Positions 2,628 to 19,110 of a DNA stretch of 57,244 nucleotides are shown piece by piece. Origin of the DNA: Anaerolineae bacterium (GTDB taxonomy: Bacteria; Chloroflexota; Anaerolineae; Anaerolineales; UBA11657); NCBI GenBank assembly GCA_963578565.1, contig CAUZCX010000001.1:1-57244 (forward strand), read 5' to 3'. How positions within the stretch are numbered: position 1 is the first letter of the stretch; the number at the start of each line of letters is the position of its first letter. The translations under genes and the position numbers were made by a program. Under the pieces are notes generated by a model. It made no database searches, had not been told where the DNA came from, and worked only from the letters and a program-made list of their open reading frames with translations.

Positions 2628-3469
2628 TGATGACTGCAGTTAAGAGCGCTGAACGGATTCGAGCGGTGGTCACAATTCATAAGCGCGATATGCGTTTAGC
2701 ATTGTTTGGACCTGCCTTGCACGTGGTCACTACGTTATCAATTTTGATTGCGGTAGTTATCATAAGAAATTACCTCAATTACATAAAAGCCAATGGCATA
2801 TATCCTATGCCTGACCTATTTTCTTTCCCTTTCAGGTGGGCCATCATAGCAACGGGGGTATACCTGGCATTCTCTACAGTTGTAACCATCTCTCGTGAAC
2901 GTGAAAGCGGTACAATGGAGCTGCTGTTCTACGGACCCGTTGATCACGTTTCGTACGTATTCGGCAAGTATATGGCGCAGGTCACTCTGTACCTCATGAT
3001 TCTAGCGCTGTACACAGTATGTTTTCTGACACTCTCTTGGATGGCACGCATTCAGCTTTCTGCTAGTTTCTTTATCATGATTCTGCTATCAGTGTTCACG
3101 GGTAGTTATCTGATTGCCATAGGAATCTTTGTATCGTCTGTCTCTAGGAGTGTCAGGAATGCTACCTTAGTATTTCTGGGCATCGTAATGGGTGCGCTCT
3201 TGATTCAAGGCATACAATCCTGGCTGTCCAACATCGCGCCGGAATCCGATTACTATAACCCAGTGCTGTTGTTGCAGCAGGTGGTTAGCTGGATTCAGGT
3301 TACCCTAACGTGGTTGTCTCCATTTTCGTATCTGAACCATGGAGTTGACGAAATGCTACGGGGCAACATGAAGGCATTTGTAGGCACGATTGCACTGGCA
3401 ATTTCATTCTGTTTGATCTTTCTTGCGAGCAGCGTTCTGGGTCTTAAATTTCGCGGGGTACGCCAATGA
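2624..3469 (+). CDS. ABC-2 type transporter permease
   Basis: About 6 predicted TM segments. The gene lies directly downstream of the ATPase and is translationally coupled to it; the ATGA overlap was checked at both ends. Confidence 0.75.
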   Translation: MMMTAVKSAERIRAVVTIHKRDMRLALFGPALHVVTTLSILIAVVIIRNYLNYIKANGIYPMPDLFSFPFRWAIIATGVYLAFSTVVTISRERESGTMELLFYGPVDHVSYVFGKYMAQVTLYLMILALYTVCFLTLSWMARIQLSASFFIMILLSVFTGSYLIAIGIFVSSVSRSVRNATLVFLGIVMGALLIQGIQSWLSNIAPESDYYNPVLLLQQVVSWIQVTLTWLSPFSYLNHGVDEMLRGNMKAFVGTIALAISFCLIFLASSVLGLKFRGVRQ

Positions 3470-4821
3470 GAAAGATCATTGGTGCCTTATTAGTACTGGG
3501 GATATGCTCGGTAATTTGTGGCGCAGCCGTTGGTATGGTCTATGCGCAGAGCTCTGATGAGAAGCGCGAAGAATTCGTGTATGGAGTGAACGCTTTCAAC
3601 GGGTCTTTGTATCACGGGACATTTTACCCACCCAGTGTTGACACGCTTTACCTGCTTGCAGACGAGATCAACATTGTCTCACCGCGAAAAACTCTGCTCT
3701 ATTATTGGCCAGTTACCAACGAGTATAAAGCTGACTGGGACACGCTAAGCGAAAATGTGGAGGGTGTGCTGGAAATCATTTCGCAGGGTCAAATGATTGC
3801 TTCCCTGCAGCCTAAGGATTACGTCATTCAGTATCCAAAGGGAATAACGCGAGGCGACCCTCAGATCTTCTTGGGAGACGATGCGCAGACCAAATATGAG
3901 CAGTGGTCCGATGAGTTGCAGGCTTATCGCTTTGCTGTTGCAGCGTATTATGAGGCATCGCGTATTTTTACGGTAACACTCGACGACAAGATCGAGGCAG
4001 GTACCATAACCTCCGCCGATGACGTCCTGGTTTCAGCACCGGATAGGCCCGCTGAATTTGTGTATTCCAGTACAAAAGTGTACAGGGGTATGCCGGTCAC
4101 ATTGTCGTCTGGGAATTACGAGATTCGGTTGCGTAATGGTGAGGGAGAGATCGTAGAAAATAGCGTAAAGAAACTAGTTGTGTTTCAACGGGACAGAGTG
4201 GGTGTTGGCTACACCGTTATTCCTGAGGACAAATGGACTACTCCAGAGGATACTCAGAGGCCAGATGAGATAGTTTATGTGAGATCCAATAATGTGCTTT
4301 ATCTAGAACCTTATTTCGAGAGTGAATATAACGAGCAGTATTTCGTCCACTTGGAAGCACCTCAGGCTCCACGTTTTGGCAACGCCGGCTGGCTATGGGT
4401 AAAGGAAGGTAAGTTTGTGCCCAATGATCTGCAAATTTCACGCGGCAAGATGTGGTTGCGAGCTGTCAGCTTTGAGGACTATATGGTGCGTCAGATCCCA
4501 GGAAAAGCCCTAGGTTACGAGATTCTTGAATGGCAGGAAGGCATTTCGCAAGGCATGCGGGAAAGGTCCCCCGATTTCTCCGCATTTCGCTTGGTTGTGG
4601 ACCACCAGATTCAGGACATTGCGCTGTATCTGGTGGGCGACAATGATGTCGCTGTTGGTGGAAGCAGTAGAACCTTAGATGCGGTCAGGGAATTTGGTTC
4701 TGGCGAATTATGGCTCCCAGCATTGCTTCCAGTTGCAGTTGGGCTTGCTATAGTAGGAACCAGACGATACTCGCTCCGCAGGTATCGCGCTGTCATCACG
4801 GAAGCATCTACAGAGCAGTAA
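3466..4821 (+). CDS. Hypothetical bitopic/exported protein coupled to the ABC-2 exporter
   Basis: N-terminal signal/anchor MRKIIGALLVLGICSVICGAAVG, about 400 aa of soluble sequence with no motif I recognise, and a C-terminal TM plus basic tail (LPALLPVAVGLAIVGTRRYSLRRYR). ATGA overlap with the permease stop at 3466-3469. Confidence 0.6.
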   Translation: MRKIIGALLVLGICSVICGAAVGMVYAQSSDEKREEFVYGVNAFNGSLYHGTFYPPSVDTLYLLADEINIVSPRKTLLYYWPVTNEYKADWDTLSENVEGVLEIISQGQMIASLQPKDYVIQYPKGITRGDPQIFLGDDAQTKYEQWSDELQAYRFAVAAYYEASRIFTVTLDDKIEAGTITSADDVLVSAPDRPAEFVYSSTKVYRGMPVTLSSGNYEIRLRNGEGEIVENSVKKLVVFQRDRVGVGYTVIPEDKWTTPEDTQRPDEIVYVRSNNVLYLEPYFESEYNEQYFVHLEAPQAPRFGNAGWLWVKEGKFVPNDLQISRGKMWLRAVSFEDYMVRQIPGKALGYEILEWQEGISQGMRERSPDFSAFRLVVDHQIQDIALYLVGDNDVAVGGSSRTLDAVREFGSGELWLPALLPVAVGLAIVGTRRYSLRRYRAVITEASTEQ

Positions 4822-7869: not shown

Positions 7870-8784
7870 GTGAGAATTGTCGTATACGGAAGCATTAATA
7901 TAGACCTGACTGCATATACGCCGACGCTCCCGATCGCTGGTGAGACCCTACTGGGACATTCTTATCTGATGTCGCTCGGAGGAAAAGGTGCTAATCAGGC
8001 GGTAGCATCAGCTCGACTGGGTGCTGAAGTTAGCCTGATAGGACACGTAGGTGATGACACTTTCGGCCAGCGAGCGATGCAACAGCTCAACGGTTATGGC
8101 GTAGATGTTTCTAGGGTAGAAACACTGACAGATCAGGGTACTGGCTTGGCTGTGATAAGTGTGGACGACAATGGCGAAAACACTATCATTGTTCTCTCTG
8201 GCGCCAATATGTATTTTGATGAGAATGATGTCGAGCGATTCCGAGATTTGTTAAGGAAGGCGCAAGTGCTTCTGATGCAACTTGAAGTCCCGGTAGGAGC
8301 AGATTTGGCGGTGGCCAAGATCGCGCATGAGGAGGGGGTCAAGGTGATTTTAGACCCTGCGCCCGCAGCGCAACTTCCGGATGAGCTCTATCACATCGCT
8401 GACATCATGACCCCGAATGAAGTCGAGACTGAAATACTGGTTGGCATTCGGCCTTCTTCACTTGATGAAGCGGCCGAGGCAGCCAACAGACTCCGGGACC
8501 GCGGTCTCGACACCGCTGTCATTACGCTTGGATCAGGAGGTACATATTGTGCTTCAGGTTCCGACAATATCCACTTGCCTGCATTTCAGGTAGATACGGT
8601 TGACACCGTGGCGGCTGGAGATGCGTTCGCAGGAGGTCTGGCTCTGGCAATCTCAGAAGGGCTTCCAATCAATCAGGCCTTGAACTGGGGTGCGGCGGCG
8701 GGTGCCCTCTGCACCACGCGCGCTGGGGCGTCGGTCGCCATGCCCGACAGAGATGAGGTTGTGAAACTGCTGGCGAGTACATAA
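7870..8784 (+). CDS. rbsK: Ribokinase
   Basis: MRIVVYGSINIDL, LGGKGANQAVA, TPNEVE and VAAGDAFAGGL are the classic ribokinase motif set. GTG start as in the track. Confidence 0.8.
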   Translation: MRIVVYGSINIDLTAYTPTLPIAGETLLGHSYLMSLGGKGANQAVASARLGAEVSLIGHVGDDTFGQRAMQQLNGYGVDVSRVETLTDQGTGLAVISVDDNGENTIIVLSGANMYFDENDVERFRDLLRKAQVLLMQLEVPVGADLAVAKIAHEEGVKVILDPAPAAQLPDELYHIADIMTPNEVETEILVGIRPSSLDEAAEAANRLRDRGLDTAVITLGSGGTYCASGSDNIHLPAFQVDTVDTVAAGDAFAGGLALAISEGLPINQALNWGAAAGALCTTRAGASVAMPDRDEVVKLLAST

Positions 8785-8956: not shown

Positions 8957-10744
8957 CTAATAATAGGTTGTTCTGATAACCGGCTGGAACAGCTGTGTGT
9001 CCCTCGCACAGACAGTCTCCAGAATGCACCGTTCGCACTCCGGTTCGCTCATCTCCGGGCATCCGCTCCGCATCTGGAAAAAGAATTGATCGACTGAAAC
9101 CATATCCACACCGGAAACATCCGCTATCATCCTGATGGCCTCATAGACGCTGGATCGGATTGCGTACTCATCTTCATCTGTCATCCGTCTGCGGTCGATG
9201 ACTTGTAAGCGAAGTCCCGGGTCAATCACGTTGACAATGCCTGTCCGCAGCGCGGAACGCATGAGATGGTAGTCAATGCAAGGAGGCAGGGCTTCTCCAG
9301 TTGCGGGCCGCAAGAATCTTTCAGGACGATTCACGAGGATGTAAGCAAGTAGCGCCGATTTTTTCTGCAGTGGGTCATCTTTGTAACCACCAACTTGCCA
9401 CAGAAATCGTAAGAATTCATCAAGTGGCTTCTTTGATTCCTTGGCCCGCCTAAGGATTTCGCTCGGCGTCACTCCTAATTCCAACATATCCCGGCCATAA
9501 GCTCGCGCTTCAGATAGGTGCAGATCTAACGCTGGCATTGGACAGATACCATGATCATCCTCTAAAACCGATGCCAGTTCCTCTTTGGAGAGATTAGCCT
9601 GTCGATCTATATGAAAGAATCCCGGGTCGGATTCCAAAACACGGAAATAAGCAGAAAGCAGGTAGTCAGACCCCTTCAGAGTCTTACCATCAATCTCAGC
9701 AATCATAGGCCGTTGATAGCGCCCATTGCTCTCCTCCCAAAATCCAAACTGTTGAAGGGTAAGTGCGAAAAAGAAGTCCAGGGCACTAGGATGTCCTTCC
9801 GTAGGCTGCCCCGCACCGGTAAACGTATGTGGAGTAGTCGTCTTCTTCGCCTTCAGTAAGCGAGCAATATTGTGTGTTTGGTCACTGTTCACTACCACAC
9901 GACTGCTTGTCGTTGGTTGTGTTCCAAACGCGTCACCGATAAGGCCTTTAGGTCCCAAGTGGCGGACATTGAGTGTAGCTACGTGAACGGCGTTGTTGGC
10001 GGCTAGCACTGGGTGTTGCAGGCGGCACAAATATGCCAGTGTTGCTCCACAGAATGAATCTCCGGCCCCTGTGGGGTCATATGCCTCGGTCGGCACTATA
10101 TGCACACGATGAACATGGTCTCCTTGAATCACACTCAGTCCGCGGTCCCCATGTGTTACGAACAGTATGGTTCCTGGTTGCCACGAATAATCCTGAGGCT
10201 GTCCCAAGAGGGGCTCCGCCTCATGTTCATTCATGAAGCACAGATCGGCTCTCGCAACCAGTTCGTGTAACTTTCCTATCTGATCCTCTGGTAACTTGTG
10301 CCCACCACTAACTGAAACAAAGCGCGCGCGACTGTTCCGACATCTAGCTAATAGGCTGAGCTGTAGATCAATGTTTCCCAACTGCACTATGTGGACGTAG
10401 GTATATGCTGAAAGATCATCTGGCAGGACGGATTCCGTCATCAAGGATTCAGATCGAGGCTCGACAGATGTATAGTCGGCCCTGCCATCAGTATCATAAA
10501 CAATTTCGAAGTGAGGGAGTTCGTCCGGATGCACACTCGGGCCAAACCAATTAATCAACTCATTCACTGGGCGGAGCAATTTTGGCATAGGATCAGGGAA
10601 TGGCGCAAGCATATGTGCCTGCGCTCCAGCTGCCCTTGCACCTAATGCTGTATAAAGGCCTGCTCCCCCAACTGTTTGGTGAGATCTTCCGTCGAGGTGC
10701 AGCACGTCCTGGGATGCGCCTCCTATCACTAATATATTTTCCAT
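8957..10744 (-). CDS. Fusion protein: N-terminal PfkB kinase + C-terminal DUF2419/Q_salvage (Qng1-like) nucleoside-monophosphate glycosylase domain with a Cys4 motif
   Basis: N-terminal half: ILVIGGASQDVLHL, VGGAGLY, DPTGAGDSFCGATLAYL (PfkB). C-terminal half: ALDFFFALTLQQFGFWEE, IDYHLMRSALRTG and the terminal IRTTYY resemble conserved blocks of Qng1 proteins. CPEMSEPECERCILETVC (nt 9008-9061) has C-x7-C-x2-C-x5-C spacing. Confidence 0.8.
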   Translation of the reverse strand: MENILVIGGASQDVLHLDGRSHQTVGGAGLYTALGARAAGAQAHMLAPFPDPMPKLLRPVNELINWFGPSVHPDELPHFEIVYDTDGRADYTSVEPRSESLMTESVLPDDLSAYTYVHIVQLGNIDLQLSLLARCRNSRARFVSVSGGHKLPEDQIGKLHELVARADLCFMNEHEAEPLLGQPQDYSWQPGTILFVTHGDRGLSVIQGDHVHRVHIVPTEAYDPTGAGDSFCGATLAYLCRLQHPVLAANNAVHVATLNVRHLGPKGLIGDAFGTQPTTSSRVVVNSDQTHNIARLLKAKKTTTPHTFTGAGQPTEGHPSALDFFFALTLQQFGFWEESNGRYQRPMIAEIDGKTLKGSDYLLSAYFRVLESDPGFFHIDRQANLSKEELASVLEDDHGICPMPALDLHLSEARAYGRDMLELGVTPSEILRRAKESKKPLDEFLRFLWQVGGYKDDPLQKKSALLAYILVNRPERFLRPATGEALPPCIDYHLMRSALRTGIVNVIDPGLRLQVIDRRRMTDEDEYAIRSSVYEAIRMIADVSGVDMVSVDQFFFQMRSGCPEMSEPECERCILETVCARDTQLFQPVIRTTYY

Positions 10745-10848
10745 ACTCGCTAATTAGGCTCCTACGGTCCGCTCGTTCTTACCAGCCGCACCTGTGACTA
10801 ACACCAGACCTCACTAATCTCCCCTCTGGATCTTTGATCAGCATTGTT

Positions 10849-11526
10849 TTATGGTGGTGGATAGGTTTCCCATAGTTTCATACCGTAATACTCGTCCCAT
10901 AACATAGTCTCATGTTGGACGCTTATCATGAAGATGGTTTCCATCTGTTCGCACTGCTGCGTAGTGCTCACGGCTGCCTGCCTGTCAAGTAAACTTAGGG
11001 CGTGTTCCAAGCCTTCGCGATGTGCAGGATCGCTGTGAAAAGCGAACCAGTCTTGGTACGCATGACCTTTTTTGAGCGGCTTCTCCTTTAGCAAACGGTG
11101 TACAGCCTCACCATAACCCCACTGACAGGCCAATATGGCCGCCTGGACATCCCCCAAGGATCCATGATAGGCACTGGCAAGTTGGTGGCGAGTGTACGAA
11201 TACTTCAGCGGCCCCATCGCGTGGGCAAGAAGGTCCTCTCTTTTCATCCCCGTTCTTTCTGCATGCTTTTCATGATCCCGCATCTCCTCTTGGACGCTTT
11301 GCACGTGACGTAACATAACGGCCACATCGGCAGGATCATCGGCCTTGAGGATACCCAGGGCACACACTTTAATGAAATTGTGCAAATAGGGATAATCCAC
11401 GCGCAGCCAGTATCTGAAAATTTCAACTGGTAAGTCCCCGTTGATAAGTCCTTGTAGGAAAGGTTTTTTGACTTGGGCTTGCATATAGGGCTCGGCTTTG
11501 GAGAGCAGTGTACGACTAAATGACAT
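10849..11526 (-). CDS. tenA: TenA/thiaminase-II family protein (aminopyrimidine aminohydrolase-like)
   Basis: By-eye alignment to B. subtilis TenA: PFLQGLINGDLPVEIFRYWLRVDYPYL (Asp retained), AAILACQWGY (catalytic Cys position retained), ISVQHETMLW (Glu retained). Confidence 0.75.
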   Translation of the reverse strand: MSFSRTLLSKAEPYMQAQVKKPFLQGLINGDLPVEIFRYWLRVDYPYLHNFIKVCALGILKADDPADVAVMLRHVQSVQEEMRDHEKHAERTGMKREDLLAHAMGPLKYSYTRHQLASAYHGSLGDVQAAILACQWGYGEAVHRLLKEKPLKKGHAYQDWFAFHSDPAHREGLEHALSLLDRQAAVSTTQQCEQMETIFMISVQHETMLWDEYYGMKLWETYPPP

Positions 11527-11696
11527 GATTGTCTGTCTCCTTTACACCAACAGGTGCGTCGTGTGCCGATCAGCGGTTCAGGTTCTATATAGTGCTCTCT
11601 GGCACGAGTTACAACGGAAACGGAATGTCGGCCAACTTCAACAGTTTACTAATTAGACGACACCCTATTTCTGTACTGTGCAGAACAATTGCATAA

Positions 11697-12194
11697 TCAT
11701 ACCCCTACGTCTTCATGCCAAATCTCAGGAGAATCCGTGACAAAAACTTGCATGAGCTTAATACATTCATGTAAATCCAGATTGACAACTCCGACTCCAT
11801 GCTCAATCAACCAGTCTTCACACAGAGTTAGGTTTTGCACCGTTCTATTTTCACCAATGACCACACGTGGTATCTTGTACAGGATAATCGTACCCGCACA
11901 CATAGTGCATGGAGAAAGGGTTGTGTATATCGTGGATTCAGAATATGTGCTAGCCCGGAGGCGGCCCGCATCCTGAATGGCTACCATCTCTGCGTGTAGG
12001 ATGGGGTTTTCCCTTTGAACACGCTGGTTGTGTCCCCTTCCTATAATACGGCCCTGTGATACCAGGACAGACCCGATAGGAATGCCGCCTCCCTCTCGTC
12101 CCTTCTTTGCCTCAGCTATAGCCTCGGCCATCCACATTCTGTCAGTATCCATGCTGTGTTCAGCTCCCCACATTGCTTGGCGCTTCACAATCAT
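11697..12194 (-). CDS. Cytosine deaminase of the CDA-fold, yeast FCY1 type
   Basis: HAEMVAIQ and LSPCTMCAGTII zinc motifs. Overall length and blocks (GGIPIGSVLV, IPRVVIGEN, ending SPEIWHEDVGV) parallel yeast Fcy1 as I remember it. Confidence 0.8.
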   Translation of the reverse strand: MIVKRQAMWGAEHSMDTDRMWMAEAIAEAKKGREGGGIPIGSVLVSQGRIIGRGHNQRVQRENPILHAEMVAIQDAGRLRASTYSESTIYTTLSPCTMCAGTIILYKIPRVVIGENRTVQNLTLCEDWLIEHGVGVVNLDLHECIKLMQVFVTDSPEIWHEDVGV

Positions 12195-12203
12195 GCATTG
12201 TGA

Positions 12204-12983
12204 TCATTTCGCTGTGTTCTTGTCAAGCTGAATAAGAAGACGCACGCCTTCAACAGCAGTACGGCACAGTGGCTCAAGACCATCGTGGCTCCCGCCCGCG
12301 ACCATCAAGCCACCCGCCCGTTTCGCGAGCGTACGCGCGATCACAAATAACGCGGCAGCCTCCATCTCGGAGCATAGTACTCCGCCCTGTACCCAGCACT
12401 TCCAGCGTTCTTTGAGCATGTCTGCCAGCGGCATCCTGTCAGGCTCAACTTCACCGTAGAACGAGTCTTTAGAGTGCGAAATACCTACGTGGTAAGGGGC
12501 AGCAGTGACTTCGCATGCCTGCCTGAGGCAAGCGACGACATCTAGGTCTGCCACAGCAGGAAAGGCCATCGGCATGTAATGCAATGCTGTTCCTTCATCG
12601 CGCACTGCGGCAGACACAACAACTAGATCGCCCGGCGAGACCCAATCTTGTAACGTTCCCGACGTCCCTACACGGATAAATGTATCTGCTCCAATCTTCG
12701 CCAGCTCCTCAACTGCGATGGCTGTAGAGGGCCCCCCGATCCCTGTCGAGGTGACAGAGACAGGTGCACCCTCTAGCATTCCGGTGTAGGTTCGATGTTC
12801 TCGATTCTCCGCAACCTGACGGGCACCGTCTAGGAAGGATGCAATGAGCGGCACCCTCCCGGGATCACCCGGCAGGAGCACATATCGGCCAACGTCTCCC
12901 GGCCGCATTTTTATGTGGTACTGTGGGATTGTTTCGTCCGTGGTATCAACAAGCTGGCGCCGGTGTTCCGTTTTCTTAGCCAT
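12204..12983 (-). CDS. Nucleoside phosphorylase, PNP/UDP family 1 (uridine-phosphorylase-like), paralog 1
   Basis: YVLLPGDPGRV, VTSTGIGGPSTAIAVEEL, FIRVGTSG and SEMEAAALF motifs. Confidence 0.8.
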   Translation of the reverse strand: MAKKTEHRRQLVDTTDETIPQYHIKMRPGDVGRYVLLPGDPGRVPLIASFLDGARQVAENREHRTYTGMLEGAPVSVTSTGIGGPSTAIAVEELAKIGADTFIRVGTSGTLQDWVSPGDLVVVSAAVRDEGTALHYMPMAFPAVADLDVVACLRQACEVTAAPYHVGISHSKDSFYGEVEPDRMPLADMLKERWKCWVQGGVLCSEMEAAALFVIARTLAKRAGGLMVAGGSHDGLEPLCRTAVEGVRLLIQLDKNTAK

Positions 12984-12994
12984 GCGGCGTCATC

Positions 12995-13690
12995 CTAGTT
13001 GGGCATTCCGGCAAGAACACCCAACTCATCTCCTTCGCCTGCCCATGGGTCAGACAACTCCCACCCAGCATCAAACGTTGCTATTTGATGCTGGGTGGCC
13101 CTTAGGAAAAGCCAGCACATTTTCTCGCGCTCGTAATCTGTGGTGTTTGCGCCGTACTCGTTAATACCATCCTCGGTTGCTCTCTGCATGTCTCGGTAAA
13201 AGGAATCCGTCCATTGCTTGATCCAATCCTCCTGCAACTCCGAAAGAGTCTTAGGTTGTTCATTTTCATAGCGCACTCCAAATGTCGTGTGGAAACAGTC
13301 GCACGGATAGACAGCACAACATATGTCGCCGAACGTGCCCTGATAGAATGCCCTGACGAAAAAGTTGATGAATGCTTCCCTGCGAGGTCTAGCTGCCCAG
13401 CGGGTCAGCGCACACTCATCGTAGTCTTCCAGCATGCGTAACTCCACGCGCGATTCAGCCACACGGACACCATATTCTGTTTGAAGCTTCACCAACTGAT
13501 TATGCGGTGGCACTTTTGCGAAGGCTACCTGTGCTGAATCTTCGCCGATGTAAGGAAGATATTGGATCAGCCAATAGCGAAACCGTTCCTCGTCGAGTTG
13601 CCCAGCAAAGAGAGCTTCGATCCAGGGATGATGGATATATCTCTGCCAACTGGGTCCTGAAAATACATTACATTTTTCCAGAAATGACAA
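12995..13690 (-). CDS. Divergent TenA/haem-oxygenase-like fold protein
   Basis: HPWIEALFAGQLDEERFRYWLIQYLPYI aligns with the TenA N-terminal block. CAVYPCDCF retains the Cys position, but the Asp and Glu positions appear substituted (by-eye alignment). Confidence 0.6.
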   Translation of the reverse strand: MSFLEKCNVFSGPSWQRYIHHPWIEALFAGQLDEERFRYWLIQYLPYIGEDSAQVAFAKVPPHNQLVKLQTEYGVRVAESRVELRMLEDYDECALTRWAARPRREAFINFFVRAFYQGTFGDICCAVYPCDCFHTTFGVRYENEQPKTLSELQEDWIKQWTDSFYRDMQRATEDGINEYGANTTDYEREKMCWLFLRATQHQIATFDAGWELSDPWAGEGDELGVLAGMPN

Positions 13691-13694
13691 CGTT

Positions 13695-14444
13695 TTACCT
13701 CCCTACATGATCTTGTTCAATCAGGATCTTAATAGCAGACACAGACGTTTCAAGTAAACTGGATAGATCGTCGTGAGTGCCCCCGGCGAGCATGATCCCC
13801 CCGGCCCGACATTGCAATATTCTCGCAACGACAAAAATAGTTGAGGCCTCCATTTCGGAGGACAACGTACCACCTTCTATCCAAGCCCGCCAGCGGTCCT
13901 GCAGTTCCCCGGCAATAGGCATGCGCTCGGGTTCGTGTTGCCCGTAGAAAGAGTCTTTGGATTGACTTAAACCGACGTGGTGGCGAAGATTGTGATTTCG
14001 TGCAGCTTGCCTTAATGCTAGGGTCACATCGAGGTCAGCGATCGCTGGATACTCTAAGGGCATGTATTGTTGCGAAGTGAATTCATCTCGGACGGCACCC
14101 CAAGCAATCAACAGGTCACCAGGCTCGATGAATTCCTGCATAGGTCCAGACGTGCCTACTCGAATGAACGTATCAGCGCCAGCCATTGTCAATTCTTCCA
14201 CCGCTATTGCTGTCGACGGGCATCCCATTCCAGTCGAGGTTACCGAGACTTTCTCTCCTGAGAGTTCTCCCGTGTAGGTCAGATACTCCCGATTATGTGC
14301 GACCTCTTGGGCATCATCTAGTAGACCCGCAATCATGGGGACCCGACCAGGGTCTCCAGGAAGGAGAACATACCGGCCGATATCGCCACGCCGGCATCCG
14401 ATGTGATACATGATTGACTTATTGAGCTCAGTAGCTGTGCTCAT
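13695..14444 (-). CDS. Nucleoside phosphorylase, PNP/UDP family 1, paralog 2
   Basis: Same motif set as paralog 1 (YVLLPGDPGRV, VTSTGMGCPSTAIAVEEL, FIRVGTSG, SEMEASTIF). I place the start at ATG 14444 (MSTATEL), which overlaps the upstream TGA as ATGA. The track ORF extends to 14525. Confidence 0.8.
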   Translation of the reverse strand: MSTATELNKSIMYHIGCRRGDIGRYVLLPGDPGRVPMIAGLLDDAQEVAHNREYLTYTGELSGEKVSVTSTGMGCPSTAIAVEELTMAGADTFIRVGTSGPMQEFIEPGDLLIAWGAVRDEFTSQQYMPLEYPAIADLDVTLALRQAARNHNLRHHVGLSQSKDSFYGQHEPERMPIAGELQDRWRAWIEGGTLSSEMEASTIFVVARILQCRAGGIMLAGGTHDDLSSLLETSVSAIKILIEQDHVGR

Positions 14445-15031
14445 ACATTCGCCTTTCTCCAGAAATATACCATTGTACCAATAAATGTGACCGCAGCTCC
14501 CACAACCATTGTAACGGAGAGCCATCCGGGCATGAAGGCAATCTCACTCCATTCAAGCTGTTTACGATAAGAGATGAGCAACCAAGTGCCGGCGATCGTG
14601 ATGGCCACCCCCACGATACCAGACACATAGTCTTTCGTTGAGACTCTGATGTCACGAATGTTGGTCTTATGCCCTTTTGAACCAAATGCTCGTGATGCTA
14701 GGCTCATAGATAATTGCTGTACACGATCAATTGTGCCCGCGAACACGGGCACGATGCTCGGGATTGCTGCACCGAAACCCGTCACTTGCATCGCCCGCGA
14801 CTGCTGTGCGCTAAGAACGATCATGAACTCTCTCTGGACTATTGGGATCAACTGAATGCTCGCGGAAACCATGAAATTGAGTTCATGCGGCATGCCGAGC
14901 TTTTGGAGTGCTGCGAAGAGATGGCTATGCGTGCTGCTACTTGCTCGAAGAAGTGCCTTGATGCTGCTTTTTTTACCTGCATCAGTACTAATGACGCTGA
15001 CAGTCCGCAGGATGTGAAATTCTGGTTACAT
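14441..15031 (-). pseudogene. ECF-transporter T component (EcfT/CbiQ) remnant: C-terminal half only, codon 2 is a stop
   Basis: SASIQLIPIVQREFMIVLSAQQSRAM and SMSLASRAFGSKGHKTNIRDIR match the two EcfT coupling-helix motifs (RFIP..AQ.ARG; A..RGF). Homology continues 44 codons upstream of ATG 14893 to an in-frame TAA (15026-15028). That TAA directly follows an ATG (15029-15031) with an AGGAGG Shine-Dalgarno 6 nt upstream. No N-terminal TM helices are encoded. Confidence 0.55.
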
Positions 15032-15191
15032 AATGTACCTCCTCATTCGTACAAACATGGGTGTGTACGCCGTCAAAATCGGGGGGACGCGTGTACGATG
15101 GCCGATTACAAGATAAATATGCGATCCTACTTTGGTCCCTCGCAGCTCCCGTCCGGAACGAGCTAGGAGTGCTCATAACTAACGTCATCAG

Positions 15192-15668
15192 TTAAGAGTA
15201 CATCGAAACGTTGATGTGTAGTTGCTTTGGGCCGAATGCATATGGCAGAAGCTCTTCAATCGTTGTAACAGCAATGTTCGTCTTGTCAGCGGTAGCTAAA
15301 ATGATTTCAATGTCGCATCCGGAAACCTGTGAAAACTCATAAATTACCTGCCGGCAGCTACCACATGGGCCAGCGGTTATCTGGCTTTTCTCGAAGTTAT
15401 CCGAGCGCCCAGTGACCGCAATTGCAATAATGTCACGGGCACCACCCGAGTTAGCTTTTCCGATAGCCATTCTCTCCGCGCATATGGTTGAACCATAAGC
15501 CGCGTTCTCAACGTTTGATGCCGAGAATAAGGCTCCACTTCGAGTACGCACGGCTGCGCCCACAAAATACCCAGAGTACGGATTGTATGCGGTCTCTAAC
15601 GCAGCAATGGCAGCATCCACCAGTTCATCTTGATCTTGGGTTAGATTCTCCGTCGCCACAGTTTTCAT
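15192..15668 (-). CDS. cdd: Cytidine deaminase (homotetrameric type)
   Basis: CAERMAIGKA and PCGSCRQVIYEF zinc motifs. I prefer ATG 15668 (MKTVATE) over the track start at 15692. Confidence 0.85.
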   Translation of the reverse strand: MKTVATENLTQDQDELVDAAIAALETAYNPYSGYFVGAAVRTRSGALFSASNVENAAYGSTICAERMAIGKANSGGARDIIAIAVTGRSDNFEKSQITAGPCGSCRQVIYEFSQVSGCDIEIILATADKTNIAVTTIEELLPYAFGPKQLHINVSMYS

Positions 15669-15883
15669 TACAATTGACCCCCATGATACCAAAAGGATTG
15701 GACAGAATTATATGAGGATGTGATGGTGGTTTGAATTTACCACAACATGCAATATCATGCTAACACAACAGTTACTATACAATATAGTATGGTAACGCAA
15801 CACTCAGCAAGAACCCAGATATGCGCATTGCCAAAGTCGCTTCATAGTTATGTGCAGGCTCAGGCATAAGTTTCATTGAATTG

Positions 15884-17098
15884 TCATGGTTTTCTTCCAG
15901 GAAGGGCCTGATTAAAATCACGAATGATGTCATCGGCATCTTCCAGTCCTACGGATACGCGGATCATGCCGTCGCGAATATTCATTTGTTCCCTCTGTTC
16001 TTTTGGGACGTCTAGAAAAGCCATCGTAGCAGGAACCTGAGTGATGGTGCGGACGCTTCCCAAACTACCGGCGAACGCGCACAGTTCTAGGGCATCACAT
16101 ACCTTGACTGCTGATTTGCTATCCTCTACCTCGAAGGTAAGCATCGCACCATAATTCGGTATTTGTTCTTTGGCGGTCTGGTGCTCAGGATGAGAGACAA
16201 GACCCGGATAAAGCACTCTCTTGACAAACGGATTACCCTCTAGCCATGTTGCTAACGTCATCGCTGTTTTGCATTGACGTTCCATGCGCACCGGCAGTGT
16301 TTGCAGACCTCGTAGCAGCATCCATGCATTGAAGGGTGACAGTACTCCACCCAGCTTTACTAGTGATGACCAGCGCAACTCGTGCAGAAAGTCAACGGGA
16401 AGATGTCCGTACTTCACAGCTATGATGCCACCTATCACATCGTTGTGCCCACCCATAAACTTGGTCGCACTTTCCACAACAATGTCCACCCCCCAATCAA
16501 GTGGGCGTATTAGATACGGACTGGCGAATGTGTTGTCACATACCACTAAGACGTCATGGTCATGAGCCAAATCAATGAGAGGAGGAATGGCTGCCACGCG
16601 CATTGTGGGATTGGCAATCGTCTCGAAATAAACGATTCTTGTCTTGTCTGTCAACGATCGTTCTACTTGACCGATGTCAGTGGTGTCTACAAAAGTGGTC
16701 TCTATACCGTAATCTGGTAGCCGATGATCGAACAATTCATGCGTGGAGCTATAGGTTGTCCAGTCAGAGACGATGTGGTCACCTGCCCGAAGTAGAGCGA
16801 AGCAGGTGGTAAACACTGCTGCCATGCCGGATGCGACCGCCAGACAACCGTCAGCATTTTCTAGCACAGCCACCTGTTCTTCTAGGGCATACTCGCTCGG
16901 ATTTCCACATCTACCGTATATGTTGATCTGTTCCCGCTCACCGTCGACAATCCGTTTGTGGGTTTCCGCATCATACTGGAAATTGTTGGACAAATATATC
17001 GGCGCATTTAGAGATTTGGTTTCTGGATCCGGATCGTAATAAACCGCTTTGCTAGCAAACGACAATGCATCTTTAGTTTCCTGTCTCATATTGCTCAT
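15884..17098 (-). CDS. Cys/Met-metabolism PLP-dependent enzyme (cystathionine gamma-synthase / methionine gamma-lyase family)
   Basis: YGRCGNPS, ASGMAAV and SATKFMGGHNDVIGG (PLP lysine) motifs. Possible starts are GTG 17119, ATG 17098 or ATG 17089, with a GGGAGG box at 17101-17106. Confidence 0.8.
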   Translation of the reverse strand: MSNMRQETKDALSFASKAVYYDPDPETKSLNAPIYLSNNFQYDAETHKRIVDGEREQINIYGRCGNPSEYALEEQVAVLENADGCLAVASGMAAVFTTCFALLRAGDHIVSDWTTYSSTHELFDHRLPDYGIETTFVDTTDIGQVERSLTDKTRIVYFETIANPTMRVAAIPPLIDLAHDHDVLVVCDNTFASPYLIRPLDWGVDIVVESATKFMGGHNDVIGGIIAVKYGHLPVDFLHELRWSSLVKLGGVLSPFNAWMLLRGLQTLPVRMERQCKTAMTLATWLEGNPFVKRVLYPGLVSHPEHQTAKEQIPNYGAMLTFEVEDSKSAVKVCDALELCAFAGSLGSVRTITQVPATMAFLDVPKEQREQMNIRDGMIRVSVGLEDADDIIRDFNQALPGRKP

Positions 17099-17293
17099 TA
17101 CCTCCCATACTGGCCGCACAATCGTAAATCACCTTGAATAAACTGCGATATCTCGACTCTCGGTAGCACCATACAAGCTGGGAACACCTCAGCATCCCCG
17201 ATTGTATGATTGTACACTTGACAATGACTTGCCCTAATATCAGGAATCAACGAGTCTGTGCACAATCCGCGGATGTGTTGTTAAGTGCCACCT

Positions 17294-18313
17294 TTATATC
17301 AATTTGAGCAGCTTCCGCCTAAGCTTCGGGTCATTAATAAATGCCGCCGTAATTCCCATATGTTGCACACGTTTTATTTCTTCTAGACTAAACTTAAAAT
17401 TATTTTGCAAGACCGTTAACTCCTGGGATACCCTAGTCCTAGAGGTGATGGGGTCATCATCTCCAACAGAGATGTAAATGCCTTGCTCGTAGAGCTTACG
17501 TATTGGATGGTTTTCAATGCCGTTGACAGTGTTAGTATGGACGTTGCTCGTCGGGCATAACTCGAGCAGAACACTCTGCTGACGAAGCATTGCAAGCACC
17601 GCTTCGGATTCCATGCTATTGACCCCATGTCCTATTCGCGAGGCTTTCAGTTTTTCAACAGCGTAGCGCACATTTTCTGCACCGTCTGCCTCGCCTGCGT
17701 GTACCGTGATCCCTAAACCGCCTTCTCGAGCCACTCTAAATGCTTCAGCGTGAATTTGGGCCGGGTAGCCGGCCTCATCGCCGGCTAAATCAAAACCTAC
17801 CACTCCGTCCTTTTGAAACTCCAGCGCAATATGTGCCAGTACCACATTAATCTTAGGGTCATGGTGTCTCAGAGCAGAGATAATCAAACGACATTCTATG
17901 TCATATTGTTGTTGGGCCTGATGCAGCCCCTGTAAAATGCTTGCGATCACATCTTCGACGGCGAAATCGGAGCTACTATGTGTAACTGGCCCAGCCCTCA
18001 ATTCAAGATAGATGACGCCATCTAGAGCAGCGTCCTCTGCGGCTTCATAAGATATCCGTTGTACCTCTTGTTTTCCCACAAACACCTGGTAACCGAATGC
18101 GATTTTTTTTAGGTAGTCGACCAAGTTTCGCTCATCACCGGTAACTTGCATTGCATCTGCTATAGCTTCGCTTGCGAGTTCCACGTCTAGACCGTGCAAT
18201 TTCGCTATCTCCCTGAAAGTACTGGGTCGTACTGATCCCTCCAGATGAGTGTGAATGTTGCATTTGGGCAACGCTTTCAAAATCGGGTCAGGCGATGGAG
18301 CAAAGAACCGCAT
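17294..18313 (-). CDS. add: Adenosine deaminase family protein (canonical motifs)
   Basis: NIHTHLEGS, VHAGE, RIGHGV and GDDDP motifs. Confidence 0.8.
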   Translation of the reverse strand: MRFFAPSPDPILKALPKCNIHTHLEGSVRPSTFREIAKLHGLDVELASEAIADAMQVTGDERNLVDYLKKIAFGYQVFVGKQEVQRISYEAAEDAALDGVIYLELRAGPVTHSSSDFAVEDVIASILQGLHQAQQQYDIECRLIISALRHHDPKINVVLAHIALEFQKDGVVGFDLAGDEAGYPAQIHAEAFRVAREGGLGITVHAGEADGAENVRYAVEKLKASRIGHGVNSMESEAVLAMLRQQSVLLELCPTSNVHTNTVNGIENHPIRKLYEQGIYISVGDDDPITSRTRVSQELTVLQNNFKFSLEEIKRVQHMGITAAFINDPKLRRKLLKLI

Positions 18314-18336: not shown

Positions 18337-19110
18337 CTATTGTCCGTCGTTCTCGTATCGGTAGATACCCTCAAGTGCTATAGAGATAGCGTCGTCCCAA
18401 GCTTTCGTGAGACGAGTATTCTCACTCTCATACTCCACATCAGCAGTGACTAAGTTTCCCGACACCCCACATATCATCGCAGCTTTTAGTCCTCGCATGT
18501 GAGCGATGGAGAATATTGCGGCGCTTTCCATTTCAACATTGAGCAATTTGTGCTTCGAGAGCATCTCGATCCATTCAGGCGTCTCACCATAGAAGGCGTC
18601 GTCACTGGCATTCAGACCAATGTGAAGCATGTAGTCACTTTTGTCGCATAATTCTCGCCCAGCTTCTATGAGTGCATGAGTGAGAAAATGGTCCGCCACT
18701 GCCGGAAAACCATCTGGGACATAGAACCTAGTGGTTCCTTCATTACGCATTGAGGCAGTATTGATAATTACATCACCGGTTTGAATCCCAGGCTGTAAAG
18801 CACCTGTGCTTCCAACCCGGACAAAGTGCGTGGCCCCGACATTTGCCAGCTCTTCGATAGCAATTGCTGCAGAAGGACATCCTATACCAGTCGATGTAGC
18901 ACTAATATTGATGCCTTTGTAAAGGCCAGAACATGTCCTGTACTCTCGATGAAACACAATCTGTTTAGCACTTTCAAGATGTCTCGCAATTCGAAGCACG
19001 CGGTCTGGATCGCCTGGAAGCAAGACATACTTCCCGACATCTCCCGGCTTCAGCCGAAGATGATACTGCATTTTGCCTTTAGTAGTATCGGCTTTGTTTA
19101 ACGTAGGCAT
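18337..19110 (-). CDS. Nucleoside phosphorylase, PNP/UDP family 1 (uridine-phosphorylase-like), paralog 3
   Basis: YVLLPGDPDRV, TSTGIGCPSAAIAIEEL, FVRVGSTG and VEMESAAIF motifs. Confidence 0.8.
   Translation of the reverse strand: MPTLNKADTTKGKMQYHLRLKPGDVGKYVLLPGDPDRVLRIARHLESAKQIVFHREYRTCSGLYKGINISATSTGIGCPSAAIAIEELANVGATHFVRVGSTGALQPGIQTGDVIINTASMRNEGTTRFYVPDGFPAVADHFLTHALIEAGRELCDKSDYMLHIGLNASDDAFYGETPEWIEMLSKHKLLNVEMESAAIFSIAHMRGLKAAMICGVSGNLVTADVEYESENTRLTKAWDDAISIALEGIYRYENDGQ

Follow-up and report, generated by a model that had tools for sequence, protein, structure and literature searches.

What role could two TenA-family genes play among nucleoside phosphorylases and a cytosine deaminase? 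The block that raises this question lies in a 57,244-nt stretch of DNA from an Anaerolineae bacterium (the window). We consider the breakdown of unusual pyrimidine nucleosides, rather than vitamin B1 recycling, to be its most likely function.

A conserved block within a nucleoside island

Open reading frame and Pfam/NCBIfam checks identified five real genes on the minus strand—PNP2, TenA2, PNP1, an FCY1-type cytosine deaminase, and TenA1—separated by 4, 11, 9, and 170 nt; the order and the first three gaps agree with a first-pass annotation (Table 1). That annotation also placed the PNP2 start at Met28, which is likely the true start; PNP2 homologues span 246–249 aa, and this start codon overlaps the stop codon of an ecfT remnant (ATGA). 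In one related locus (L005), PNP2 and TenA2 overlap by 4 nt.

Table 1. Features of the block and its flanks (window positions)
Feature	Position	Strand	Match or remark
Ribokinase	7870..8784	+	TIGR02152 335 bits, cut-off 300
PfkB-family kinase fused to Qng1 (DUF2419)-like domain	8957..10744	-	595 aa
TenA1	10849..11526	-	PF03070 118 bits; TIGR04306 141.5 bits, cut-off 130
FCY1-type cytosine deaminase	11697..12194	-	full-length match to yeast Fcy1 structures, E=3e-35
PNP1	12204..12983	-	PF01048 124 bits
TenA2	12995..13690	-	TTG start; PF03070 42.7 bits
PNP2	13695..14444 (ORF to 14525)	-	PF01048 122 bits; TIGR01718 269 bits, cut-off 280
EcfT remnant (C-terminal half of ECF-transporter T component)	14441..14893	-	
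Cytidine deaminase (upstream neighbour of the block)	15192..15692	-	NF004064 121 bits, cut-off 74
Cys/Met-metabolism PLP enzyme, methionine gamma-lyase-like (MGL)	15884..17119	-	PF01053 427 bits
Adenosine deaminase	17294-18313	-	TIGR01430 291 bits, cut-off 217
PNP3 (third NP-I phosphorylase)	18337-19110	-	PF01048 138 bits

The nucleoside island also has a purine-side module, made up of adenosine deaminase and PNP3, which is found in L014, L069, and L072 too; the ribokinase would handle released ribose. The EcfT remnant is 92% identical to residues 148–297 of the intact 297-aa EcfT in L063 and L064, and the truncation is identical in L066; this genome has lost the ECF genes for S, A, and A′ by deletion, together with the 5′ half of T.

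The block is found again in over 25 Anaerolineales/Chloroflexota loci and represents a conserved cluster of Anaerolineae-type bacteria. The order PNP2-TenA2-PNP1-CD-TenA1 (CD, cytosine deaminase) is kept in L005–7, L010–14, L045, L061, L063–64, L066, and L069–75, the wider conserved order being MGL-CDA-PNP2-TenA2-PNP1-CD-TenA1; rearranged versions occur in L008, L009, L015, L017, L019, L027, L029, L060, L062, and L079. PNP2, PNP1, and at least one TenA-family gene make up the recurrent set, usually with an FCY1-type deaminase. Its recurrent partners are transporters (a dedicated ECF system and MFS), cytidine deaminase, nucleoside hydrolases (IU-type among them), nucleoside 2-deoxyribosyltransferase-family proteins, and ribokinase. 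Each of the 20 close metagenomic relatives of TenA1 belongs to the cluster unless its contig ends too soon for any neighbours to be seen. TenA–phosphorylase adjacency is thus strongly conserved across Chloroflexota loci, and the pairs are no peculiarity of this genome. The grouping of PNP1, deaminase, and TenA1 against PNP2 and TenA2 has exceptions: TenA1 occurs in L060 with neither deaminase nor TenA2, and L062 has TenA2 and deaminase but no TenA1.

The phosphorylases differ at base-recognition residues

PNP1 and PNP2 share 61% identity over 233 aa and contain the motifs from which their close relationship had been proposed. Both score just below the TIGR01718 cut-off (PNP1, 252 bits; PNP2 in Table 1). 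Uridine phosphorylase of S. pyogenes presumably binds uracil through Lys162, Gln168, and His169. PNP2 keeps equivalents of all three residues, and its motif SKDSFYGQHEP is retained in all PNP2 orthologues. PNP1 was aligned to the S. pyogenes enzyme (UP-2 subfamily; PDB 3QPB), its best PDB match at 227 bits, and to E. coli-type uridine phosphorylases; it keeps only the lysine (Lys172), with Glu178 and Val179 at the Gln168 and His169 positions (numbering checked). The difference is systematic: in every cluster locus PNP1 orthologues carry GE[VITLM]xP and PNP2 orthologues GQHEP, and 112 of the 120 closest PNP1 homologues have glutamate plus an aliphatic residue here (motif SKD[SA]F[YF][GAS]E[VITML], not found by pattern in the other 8). 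The two proteins are putative UP-2-type paralogues of divergent base recognition; unlike the S. pyogenes enzyme, they are invariably encoded side by side as a pair. The earlier description of two phosphorylase/TenA pairs stands as to pairing; the pairs are not equivalent, since their phosphorylases differ at these residues.

The cytosine deaminase, whose first-pass identification is borne out by its full-length alignment with yeast Fcy1 (PDB 1UAQ/1P6O), keeps all of the Zn, catalytic, and cytosine-binding residues (His62, Glu64, Cys91, Cys94, Asn51, Trp152, and Asp155). Unlike Fcy1, it is bacterial and shares an operon with a phosphorylase, and in the deaminase clade adjoining PNP1 the lid residue Phe114 is replaced by Val, and Asn113 by Thr.

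Two TenA paralogues with distinct active sites

TenA1 matches B. subtilis TenA (thiaminase II, TenA_C class; PDB 1YAF/2QCX) at E=1e-26 by phmmer. Alignment confirms the Asp/Cys/Glu retention read by eye in the first pass: D44, C134, and a glutamate occupy the Asp44, Cys135, and Glu205 positions, and Tyr47, Tyr112, and Tyr139 are kept as well. The catalytic Cys, common to TenA1 and TenA2, is invariant in the TenA1 clade, which has specific changes elsewhere (Tyr163 to His, Phe208 to Leu, and Tyr136 to Gln).

TenA2 has Y44, C130, and Q202 at the three catalytic positions. Cys and Gln, as first read, hold across its homologues (n=75, 52–94% identity): Cys130 in 67 of 73 (6 unresolved) and Gln202, where B. 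subtilis TenA has Glu205, in 72 of 73 (1 unresolved). The Asp-to-Tyr change is real in this protein but not family-wide, position 44 being Asp in 44 and Asn in 25 homologues (4 unresolved). A reciprocal Tyr136-to-Asp change accompanies it in the window copy, and Tyr44 is half of a D44Y/Y136D swap peculiar to that copy rather than a family trait. TenA2 further differs from B. subtilis TenA in Phe/Leu for Tyr112, Trp for Tyr163, and an arginine cluster at 97–113 (Arg97/101/104/113/140 are conserved in the family). An AF2 model (pLDDT 86), with B. subtilis TenA as best Foldseek match (TM 0.76), confirms the predicted TenA fold. At E<=1e-30, only 11 clusters among 1.84 billion representatives contain TenA2 relatives; TenA2 belongs to a small, distinct Cys/Gln subfamily.

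Outside Chloroflexota, TenA2 homologues lie inside pyrimidine-catabolism operons of the uracil/thymine-degrading kind, which fits the pyrimidine-base substrate suggested earlier. A Planktomarina operon encodes PreT/PreA-type dihydropyrimidine dehydrogenase, a RutR-type TetR regulator, an M20 family peptidase, dihydropyrimidinase, and TenA2, followed by an ABC transporter. A marine Acidimicrobiia locus combines SBP, CN-hydrolase, class-III aminotransferase, dihydropyrimidinase, and Mo-hydroxylase large-subunit genes with TenA2; in an Acidimicrobiales locus the partners are AllF/AllH, AtzD-TrzD (barbiturase-type), Mo-hydroxylase subunits, NmrA, and a carbamate-kinase family member. Reductive pyrimidine catabolism (PreT/PreA-PydB-PydC with RutR) as described includes, to our knowledge, no TenA-family member, and no paper in the library searched ties TenA to phosphorylases or pyrimidine catabolism. 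About one-third of TenA2 loci (e.g., L001) lack nearby nucleoside or pyrimidine genes.

Thiamin salvage as an alternative

An ECF or NMT1-type ABC transporter beside TenA is the classic arrangement of thiamin-pyrimidine salvage (ykoEDC, thiXYZ-tenA), and such operons are under TPP-riboswitch control and lack phosphorylases and deaminases. TenA1, perhaps with TenA2, could accordingly hydrolyse 4-amino-5-aminomethyl-2-methylpyrimidine to HMP, its place in a nucleoside island reflecting shared scavenging of environmental pyrimidines. TenA1 does pass the NCBI thiaminase II equivalog threshold (TIGR04306; Table 1) and keeps the Asp, Cys, Glu, and three Tyr residues listed above. As in B. halodurans thiXYZ-tenA-ylmB and B. 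subtilis ykoEDC, dedicated importers also adjoin TenA genes here: an ECF system including the S component in relatives of the block, and ABC transporters with NMT1/THI5-type binding proteins (the ThiY family) next to TenA2 homologues of Acidimicrobiia and Planktomarina. The latter transporters, however, are encoded together with dihydropyrimidinase and a regulator of the RutR type, and the partners overall are nucleoside or pyrimidine-degradation enzymes. No TPP riboswitch was found in the window or 19 related loci from three phyla, Rfam gave zero matches within the operon, and thiD/thiE/thiM-type genes were absent from the window and the gene tables of related loci, in line with the first-pass view that this is not a thiamin-salvage context. 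The TenA1 clade was never observed outside the phosphorylase cluster (some contigs being too short to tell), and all TenA2 homologues lack the Glu205 equivalent. We regard thiamin salvage as unlikely, though the most probable of the alternatives.

A proposed route for C5-modified pyrimidine nucleosides

At about even odds (0.5), we read the block as the central part of a conserved Chloroflexota (Anaerolineae-type) locus that takes up and degrades pyrimidine nucleosides, the inferred substrate probably being C5-modified with a CH2-X side chain. The nucleoside would be imported, in close relatives by the ECF system deleted here. PNP2, with uracil-type recognition residues, would convert uridine-type nucleosides to base and ribose-1-phosphate, and PNP1 would cleave nucleosides with a different N3/C4 edge. 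Because replacing Gln by Glu and His by an aliphatic residue removes the donor/cation pair reading O4/N3-H and adds a carboxylate, 4-amino (cytosine-type) bases would be its simplest targets. The PfkB-Qng1-like fusion could provide a third route, from nucleoside through 5′-monophosphate to base and ribose-5-phosphate. TenA chemistry requires a pyrimidine C6 acceptor; in the TenA paralogues the Cys would add at C6 and expel the group carried by the C5-methylene, yielding a 5-hydroxymethyl base. TenA1 (Asp/Glu) may suit 4-amino bases, and TenA2 (Gln202 and arginine cluster) a base with a 4-oxo group, an anionic leaving group, or both. Cytosine deaminase would then turn cytosine-type into uracil-type products for pyrimidine catabolism or salvage. 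Counting against this route are TenA1's score at the thiaminase II threshold, the non-strict pairing, and the TenA2 loci devoid of pyrimidine genes; a cytidine-type phosphorylase would also be partly redundant for unmodified cytidine, given the cytidine deaminase in the same locus.

Ordinary nucleoside catabolism, in which the TenA-family proteins would serve in regulation or ligand binding instead of catalysis (roles suggested for some members), would suit the ribokinase and the adenosine and cytidine deaminases of ordinary type in the island, and a TenA-family transcriptional activator was recently reported (PMC12817078). Conservation of the catalytic Cys and pocket residues in both paralogues and tight coupling to phosphorylase genes make it improbable, and the reciprocal D44Y/Y136D swap argues for selection on active-site geometry.

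Least probable, and very unlikely, is salvage of queuosine, another 7-deazapurine, or a modified purine, in which ECF import would be followed by base release by the fusion and cleavage of a C-CH2-N side chain by a TenA-like enzyme. The fusion follows TenA1 on the minus strand after a gap of 104 nt, an adjacency shared by L015, L063–L067, and L080 across three lineages, and relatives have IU-nucleoside hydrolases and the ECF system. Its C-terminal domain is predicted to be a Qng1-like nucleotide N-glycosidase from a profile match to human QNG1 (E=5e-9) and Foldseek TM scores of 0.73–0.76 to Qng1 structures versus <=0.46 to other HhH glycosylases, with a Pfam score of its own (22.7) below the cut-off of 25. 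It shares the fold of the queuosine-5′-monophosphate N-glycosylase Qng1/DUF2419 (PDB 7U1O, 7UGK; PMC9881137), and its invariant Lys172/173 and Asp202 are spaced like Lys199 and Asp231, mutated in deposited Qng1 structures; the kinase producing queuosine-5′-phosphate is still missing (PMC9881137). The fusion is, however, only 17% identical to Qng1 and adds the PfkB kinase and a C-terminal Cys4 motif (Cys-x7-Cys-x2-Cys-x5-Cys), so its specificity may differ. No preQ1 riboswitch was found in the window or 19 related loci, nor tgt among called genes in loci with gene tables. Deazapurines also conflict with the C6 requirement of TenA chemistry. The fusion does hint at the deazapurines named in the first pass, but the other enzymes of the block, all pyrimidine-type, weigh more heavily: two UP-type phosphorylases, cytosine and cytidine deaminases, and a TenA2 with relatives in pyrimidine catabolism.

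Organization and Conservation of the Locus

We read the five-gene block and its neighbors as a conserved locus that imports and dismantles pyrimidine nucleosides, probably those carrying C5-CH2-X modifications, and we give this reading a probability of about one-half. Two specialized phosphorylases (the UP-2-type paralogues PNP1 and PNP2), together with a kinase/glycosidase, would free bases from nucleosides; TenA-type cysteine chemistry would take off the side chain; and the cytosine deaminase (CD) would funnel cytosine-type products to uracil-type ones. The block forms part of a nucleoside island that occupies the first 19.5 kb of the window (see the table of features).

Features of the nucleoside island
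Feature	Position	Strand	Remark
MFS/nucleoside-symporter-like			3' part only
451-aa protein	3466-4821	plus	
ABC-2 exporter-like pair			
PfkB kinases besides the fusion (three)			one a bona fide ribokinase
Adenosine-deaminase family (two)			
Methyltransferase			
PfkB + Qng1/DUF2419-like fusion, 595 aa	8957-10744	minus	PfkB kinase N-terminal, Qng1-like domain C-terminal
TenA1	10849-11526	minus	TenA family
CD	11697-12194	minus	CMP/dCMP-deaminase-fold protein
PNP1	12204-12983	minus	phosphorylase
TenA2	12995-13690	minus	TenA family; TTG start
PNP2	13695-14525 (ORF)	minus	phosphorylase; real start very probably Met28 at 14444, giving a homologue-typical 249 aa
ECF T component fragment (150-aa ORF)	14441-14893	minus	
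150-aa ORF	14714-15166	plus	no family match
Cytidine deaminase (CDA)			
Methionine-gamma-lyase-like PLP enzyme (MGL)			
Adenosine deaminase			
PNP3, third phosphorylase	18337-19110	minus	NP-I phosphorylase

From PNP2 through TenA2, PNP1, and CD to TenA1, the intergenic gaps are 4, 11, 9, and 170 nt, and the Met28 ATG of PNP2 shares an ATGA with the stop of the upstream ORF. PNP1 and PNP2 are 61% identical, TenA1 and TenA2 only 24%. The first-pass annotation had described this block accurately in its gene order, its gaps, the kinship of the phosphorylases, and the FCY1-type deaminase, which the alignment to yeast Fcy1 confirms. The 170-nt CD–TenA1 spacer was considered as a conserved RNA and rejected: Lengths of 152-167 nt are confined to close relatives of the window, and other lineages have 66-72 nt.

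Our conservation survey combined locus look-ups with two collection scans. The exact window order MGL-CDA-PNP2-TenA2-PNP1-CD-TenA1 is repeated in many marine Anaerolineales contigs (loci L005-7, L010-14, L045, L061, and L069-75), and variants (L008, L009, L060, and L062) add IU-nucleoside hydrolase, nucleoside 2-deoxyribosyltransferase-family, MFS, URO-D-family, PhyH-family, and NmrA-family genes. Because a core of PNP1, PNP2, and at least one TenA-family gene is invariant across arrangements, the TenA–phosphorylase pairing recurs elsewhere, the opposite of the nonconservation that had been named at the outset as counting against the proposal. A strict division into two branches (PNP1, CD, and TenA1 versus PNP2 and TenA2) was rejected as a rule, since L060 carries PNP2-PNP1-TenA1 without CD or TenA2 and L062 carries TenA2 and CD without TenA1. 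Each of the 20 close metagenomic relatives of TenA1 (55-89% identity) lies in the cluster or on a contig too short for neighbors.

Genes for a PhyH-family dioxygenase, for nucleoside 2-deoxyribosyltransferase-family and URO-D-family proteins, and for NmrA-like reductases next to TenA2 are found at 7594-9442 of L009, 9431-10087 of L060, and 13946-15133 of L008, and in L027/L029. These families of the related clusters would fit a modified-nucleoside theme; some PhyH-family members have recently proved to be 2'-O-methyl-nucleoside demethylases (PMC12709175).

In L008, L017, L019, L027, L029, L062, L063, L064, and L079, the cluster comes after an ECF transporter with its full set of components (S-like, A, A', and T). 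In the close relatives L063/L064, CDA and a full-length T gene are separated by the S-like, A, and A' genes, and the ECF T fragment of the window is 92% identical to residues 148-297 of their intact 297-aa EcfT. The ECF importer is lost in the window's genome. The same truncation is present in L066 and is therefore a real population variant. The plus-strand ORF of the table lies in the ~300 nt between this remnant and the cytidine deaminase gene; its assignment as a phosphoesterase fragment (GNHE) was dropped, as Pfam support is absent.

Two Phosphorylases with Distinct Base-Reading Residues and a Cytosine Deaminase

Both phosphorylases have the NP-I fold with its phosphate and ribose motifs (PF01048; PNP1 124 bits, PNP2 122 bits). 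None of the three phosphorylases reaches the TIGR01718 equivalog cut-off of 280.3 bits (PNP1 252.1, PNP2 269.3, PNP3 216.1). The closest structural relative of PNP1 and PNP2 is the Streptococcus pyogenes uridine phosphorylase (UP; 3QPB), to which PNP1 aligns at 227 bits. Uracil is reportedly contacted in that enzyme by Lys162, Gln168, and His169, as described by Tran et al. in 2011; the residue numbering was checked and is consistent with a 23-residue tag.

PNP2 has all three residues, and its orthologues retain the motif SKDSFYGQHEP. PNP1 keeps the lysine and places Glu178 and Val179 at the Gln168 and His169 positions, a pattern seen as SKDSFYGE(V/T/I/L/M)xP in the orthologues of every locus; the Glu motif is found in 112 of the 120 nearest database homologues. 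Judged from sequence, the amide reading O2/N3-H would give way in PNP1 to a carboxylate, and the cationic/donor residue at O4 to an aliphatic side chain. One would predict such a change in an enzyme that takes a 4-amino (cytosine-type) base or that makes room near C4/C5, and the Glu could serve as a general acid at N3.

PNP3 adjoins an adenosine deaminase gene and is 42% identical to PNP1. Its 'FYGETPEW' motif has Glu at the Gln168 position, as in PNP1, with a shorter loop and Asp for Lys162; it is possibly a purine or MTA-type enzyme.

CD lies directly after PNP1 and matches yeast Fcy1 structures over its full length (E=3e-35), including the C-terminal W..ED.G. It retains the Zn ligands (His62, Cys91, and Cys94), the catalytic Glu64, the cytosine contacts (Asn51, Asp155, and Trp152), and the C-terminal lid helix. 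The sole lid change is Phe114 to Val, at a position that we take to be a lid residue of the yeast structures.

Two TenA Families and the Lack of a Thiamin Signal

The TENA/THI-4 domain is present in both TenA paralogues (PF03070, cut-off 22; TenA1 118 bits, TenA2 42.7 bits), and the AF2 model of TenA2 (pLDDT 86) has a TenA-like all-helical fold (TM 0.76 to Bacillus subtilis TenA, 2QCX). At the TIGR04306 equivalog cut-off of 130 bits, TenA1 scores above (141.5) and TenA2 below (51.6). Residues were compared by alignment to B. subtilis TenA, with counts taken over 73 TenA2 homologues. The catalytic Cys135 corresponds to Cys134 in TenA1 and to Cys130 in TenA2, the latter in 67/73 homologues (6 unresolved).

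The TenA1 clade retains Asp44, Tyr47, Tyr112, Cys135, Tyr139, and Glu205, with clade-constant changes of Tyr163 to His, Phe208 to Leu, and Tyr136 to Gln; the Asp, Cys, and Glu positions that the first-pass annotation had matched by eye are therefore borne out by alignment. TenA1 has both of the residues that bind the 4-aminopyrimidine, Asp44 and Glu205, whereas TenA2 lacks this pair. For TenA2, the by-eye reading of a kept Cys and of Gln in place of Glu holds across the family (Gln202 in 72/73 homologues, 1 unresolved), but the Tyr reported in place of Asp belongs to the window copy alone: Position 44 is Asp in 44 homologues, Asn in 25, and unresolved in 4. The family also retains Tyr47 and has Phe/Leu at Tyr112 and Trp at Tyr163.

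A homologue 94% identical to the window TenA2 (P0001) has Asp44 and Tyr136 where the window copy has Tyr44 and Asp136. Such a reciprocal exchange of two active-site residues points to neighboring side chains and to a pocket under selection; gene decay was rejected as an explanation of Tyr44 because Y136D reciprocates it. An arginine set in 'TRWAARPRRE..NF..R' (R97, R101, R104, and R113), plus R140, is invariant in the TenA2 family. Since this segment aligns to the KPSPTAYSY stretch of TenA, which bears Tyr112, we infer that what TenA2 binds or releases differs from the ligand or leaving group of TenA and may be anionic. More speculatively, a side chain with a carboxylate, cmnm5 for example, would match the arginine cluster.

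Homologues of TenA2 number 75 (52-94% identity) and come mostly from Anaerolineales and Actinomycetota MAGs. The family is small: A search of 1.84 billion representatives at E<=1e-30 gives 11 clusters. It is surrounded by a wider shell of distant Cys/Gln TenA-like proteins, including those of the cultured Mesorhizobium quangtriensis (WP_349016326.1) and Streptomyces sp. NPDC050658 (WP_363276266.1).

Ordinary thiamin-pyrimidine salvage, weighed with the equivalog-level score of TenA1, is an unlikely account of the locus. An Rfam scan at the gathering threshold, covering the window and 19 related loci of three phyla, detected neither a TPP nor a preQ1 riboswitch, and a scan of 10500-16000 at E<=1 returned nothing in the operon; the sole matches (a pheS T-box, an rRNA, and tRNAs) all lie outside the operon. 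Riboswitch or leader control of the operon was rejected on this result. No ThiD/ThiE/ThiM-type families occur in the gene tables of the window and related loci, where Phos_pyr_kin matches all overlap stronger PfkB/ribokinase matches. The statement made from the DNA alone, that this is not a thiamin-salvage context, fits both the riboswitch and the thi-gene results. Scans for promoters and terminators yielded as many hits as expected from shuffled sequence.

TenA2 in Pyrimidine-Degradation Operons outside Chloroflexota

In Planktomarina (L021 and L024), the TenA2 gene sits between dihydropyrimidinase and an ABC transporter, in an operon that includes a PreT/PreA-type dihydropyrimidine dehydrogenase, a TetR regulator with a YcdC/RutR C-terminal domain, and an M20 family peptidase. 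In marine Acidimicrobiia (L028, L032, L033, and L035), it is the last gene of an operon encoding an SBP, a CN-hydrolase, a class-III aminotransferase, dihydropyrimidinase, and a Mo-hydroxylase large subunit. Three further loci (L002, L039, and L057) place it next to Mo-hydroxylase subunits and NmrA, L002 also with an AtzD/TrzD (barbiturase-type) amidohydrolase, AllF/AllH, and a carbamate-kinase-family gene.

These loci are contexts of reductive and oxidative pyrimidine-ring degradation. The RutR-type regulator, PreT/PreA, dihydropyrimidinase, and M20 peptidase/CN-hydrolase are reductive, whereas Mo-hydroxylase, AtzD/TrzD, AllF/AllH, and the carbamate-kinase-family gene look oxidative. About one-third of TenA2 loci, such as L001, have no pyrimidine-degradation neighbors. 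Set beside the retained catalytic cysteine, the view that general nucleoside catabolism uses the TenA proteins in a nonenzymatic capacity is quite improbable. The homologues in pyrimidine-degradation operons are annotated merely as 'thiaminase/TenA'.

A Kinase Fused to a Qng1-like Domain

TenA1 is followed by the PfkB fusion in the window and also in L015, L063-67, and L080. The window fusion scores 22.7 bits against a cut-off of 25 for Pfam PF10343, over profile positions 3-127 only, and many of its homologues bear PF10343, alone or with PF00294. Plain phmmer against the PDB missed Qng1, which was found only by profile and fold searches: A profile of the C-terminal domain matches human QNG1 (E=5e-9), and Foldseek with the AF2 model (pLDDT 87.8) gives TM 0.73-0.76 to Qng1 (7U1O, 7U07, and 7ULC) at 17% identity, with HhH glycosylases next at <=0.46. 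Lys172/173 and Asp202 of the fusion are invariant, with spacing like that of Lys199/Asp231, which are mutated in deposited Qng1 structures. An invariant Cys-x7-Cys-x2-Cys-x5-Cys in the Qng1-like domain is reminiscent of the Fe-S loop of EndoIII/MutY.

We read the fusion, from its domain content, as a putative kinase plus nucleotide-glycosidase route that would free the base from nucleosides that the phosphorylases do not take. Qng1 acts on queuosine-5'-monophosphate, and the kinase producing that substrate is still to be found (PMC9881137); a kinase and a nucleotide N-glycosidase in one chain hint, as a Rosetta-stone clue, at a queuosine kinase. Queuosine or deazapurine salvage as the role of the locus itself, Qng1 likeness notwithstanding, is very improbable. 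The main reading and its three rivals together do not take up the whole probability, and the remainder is assigned to none of them.

A Candidate Route for Modified Pyrimidine Nucleosides

Within pyrimidine-nucleoside catabolism as we read it here, the substrate candidates of the first-pass annotation are speculative. One tentative and rather doubtful extension is an undescribed recycling route for C5-(X-methyl) pyrimidine nucleosides. Its candidate substrates would be tRNA-derived cmnm5U, mnm5U, and nm5U, hm5C/hm5U derivatives, and glucosylated hydroxymethyl bases of phage/protist DNA. PNP1 would then be a natural cytosine-type nucleoside phosphorylase in which Glu178 serves as the acid/acceptor at N3/N4; the Cys/Gln TenA2 subfamily would strip off the side chain and pass plain (hydroxymethyl)uracil to reductive/oxidative pyrimidine catabolism in at least three phyla; and the fusion would supply a kinase plus nucleotide-glycosidase bypass. 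If so, the fusion would also point to the sort of kinase that makes queuosine-5'-phosphate.

Few enzymes have so far been found that degrade free modified nucleosides from RNA/DNA turnover, 2'-O-methyl nucleoside demethylases being one example (PMC12709175). Conserved in abundant Chloroflexota of marine and engineered systems, the locus is a candidate pathway that holds three candidate enzyme novelties: a non-thiamin-linked TenA subfamily, a paralogue of uridine phosphorylase whose base-reading pair is altered, and a kinase–Qng1-like fusion. The folds are all known; what is new is the conserved gene combination, a Cys/Gln TenA subfamily associated with pyrimidine catabolism, a UP-2 paralogue of the Glu/aliphatic type, and the fusion, and a literature search found no description of any of these. 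Searches on TenA with phosphorylase or pyrimidine catabolism, cytidine phosphorylase, 5-aminomethyluracil, and modified-nucleoside catabolism returned nothing relevant. Annotations as 'thiaminase II/TenA' serve to infer vitamin B1 salvage in metagenomes and may mislead for the TenA2 family and possibly for the cluster-bound TenA1 clade.

Composition and Other Genes of the Window

The G+C content of the nucleoside island is 0.45-0.53 vs. 0.53-0.61 beyond 20 kb, and the island may be acquired or compositionally distinct. The rest of the window (20001-57244) codes for glycosyltransferases, Sua5, and others. Downstream of the ABC-2 ATPase/permease pair, the 451-aa protein has no match in Pfam or NCBIfam and is 87% identical to its counterpart in L065.
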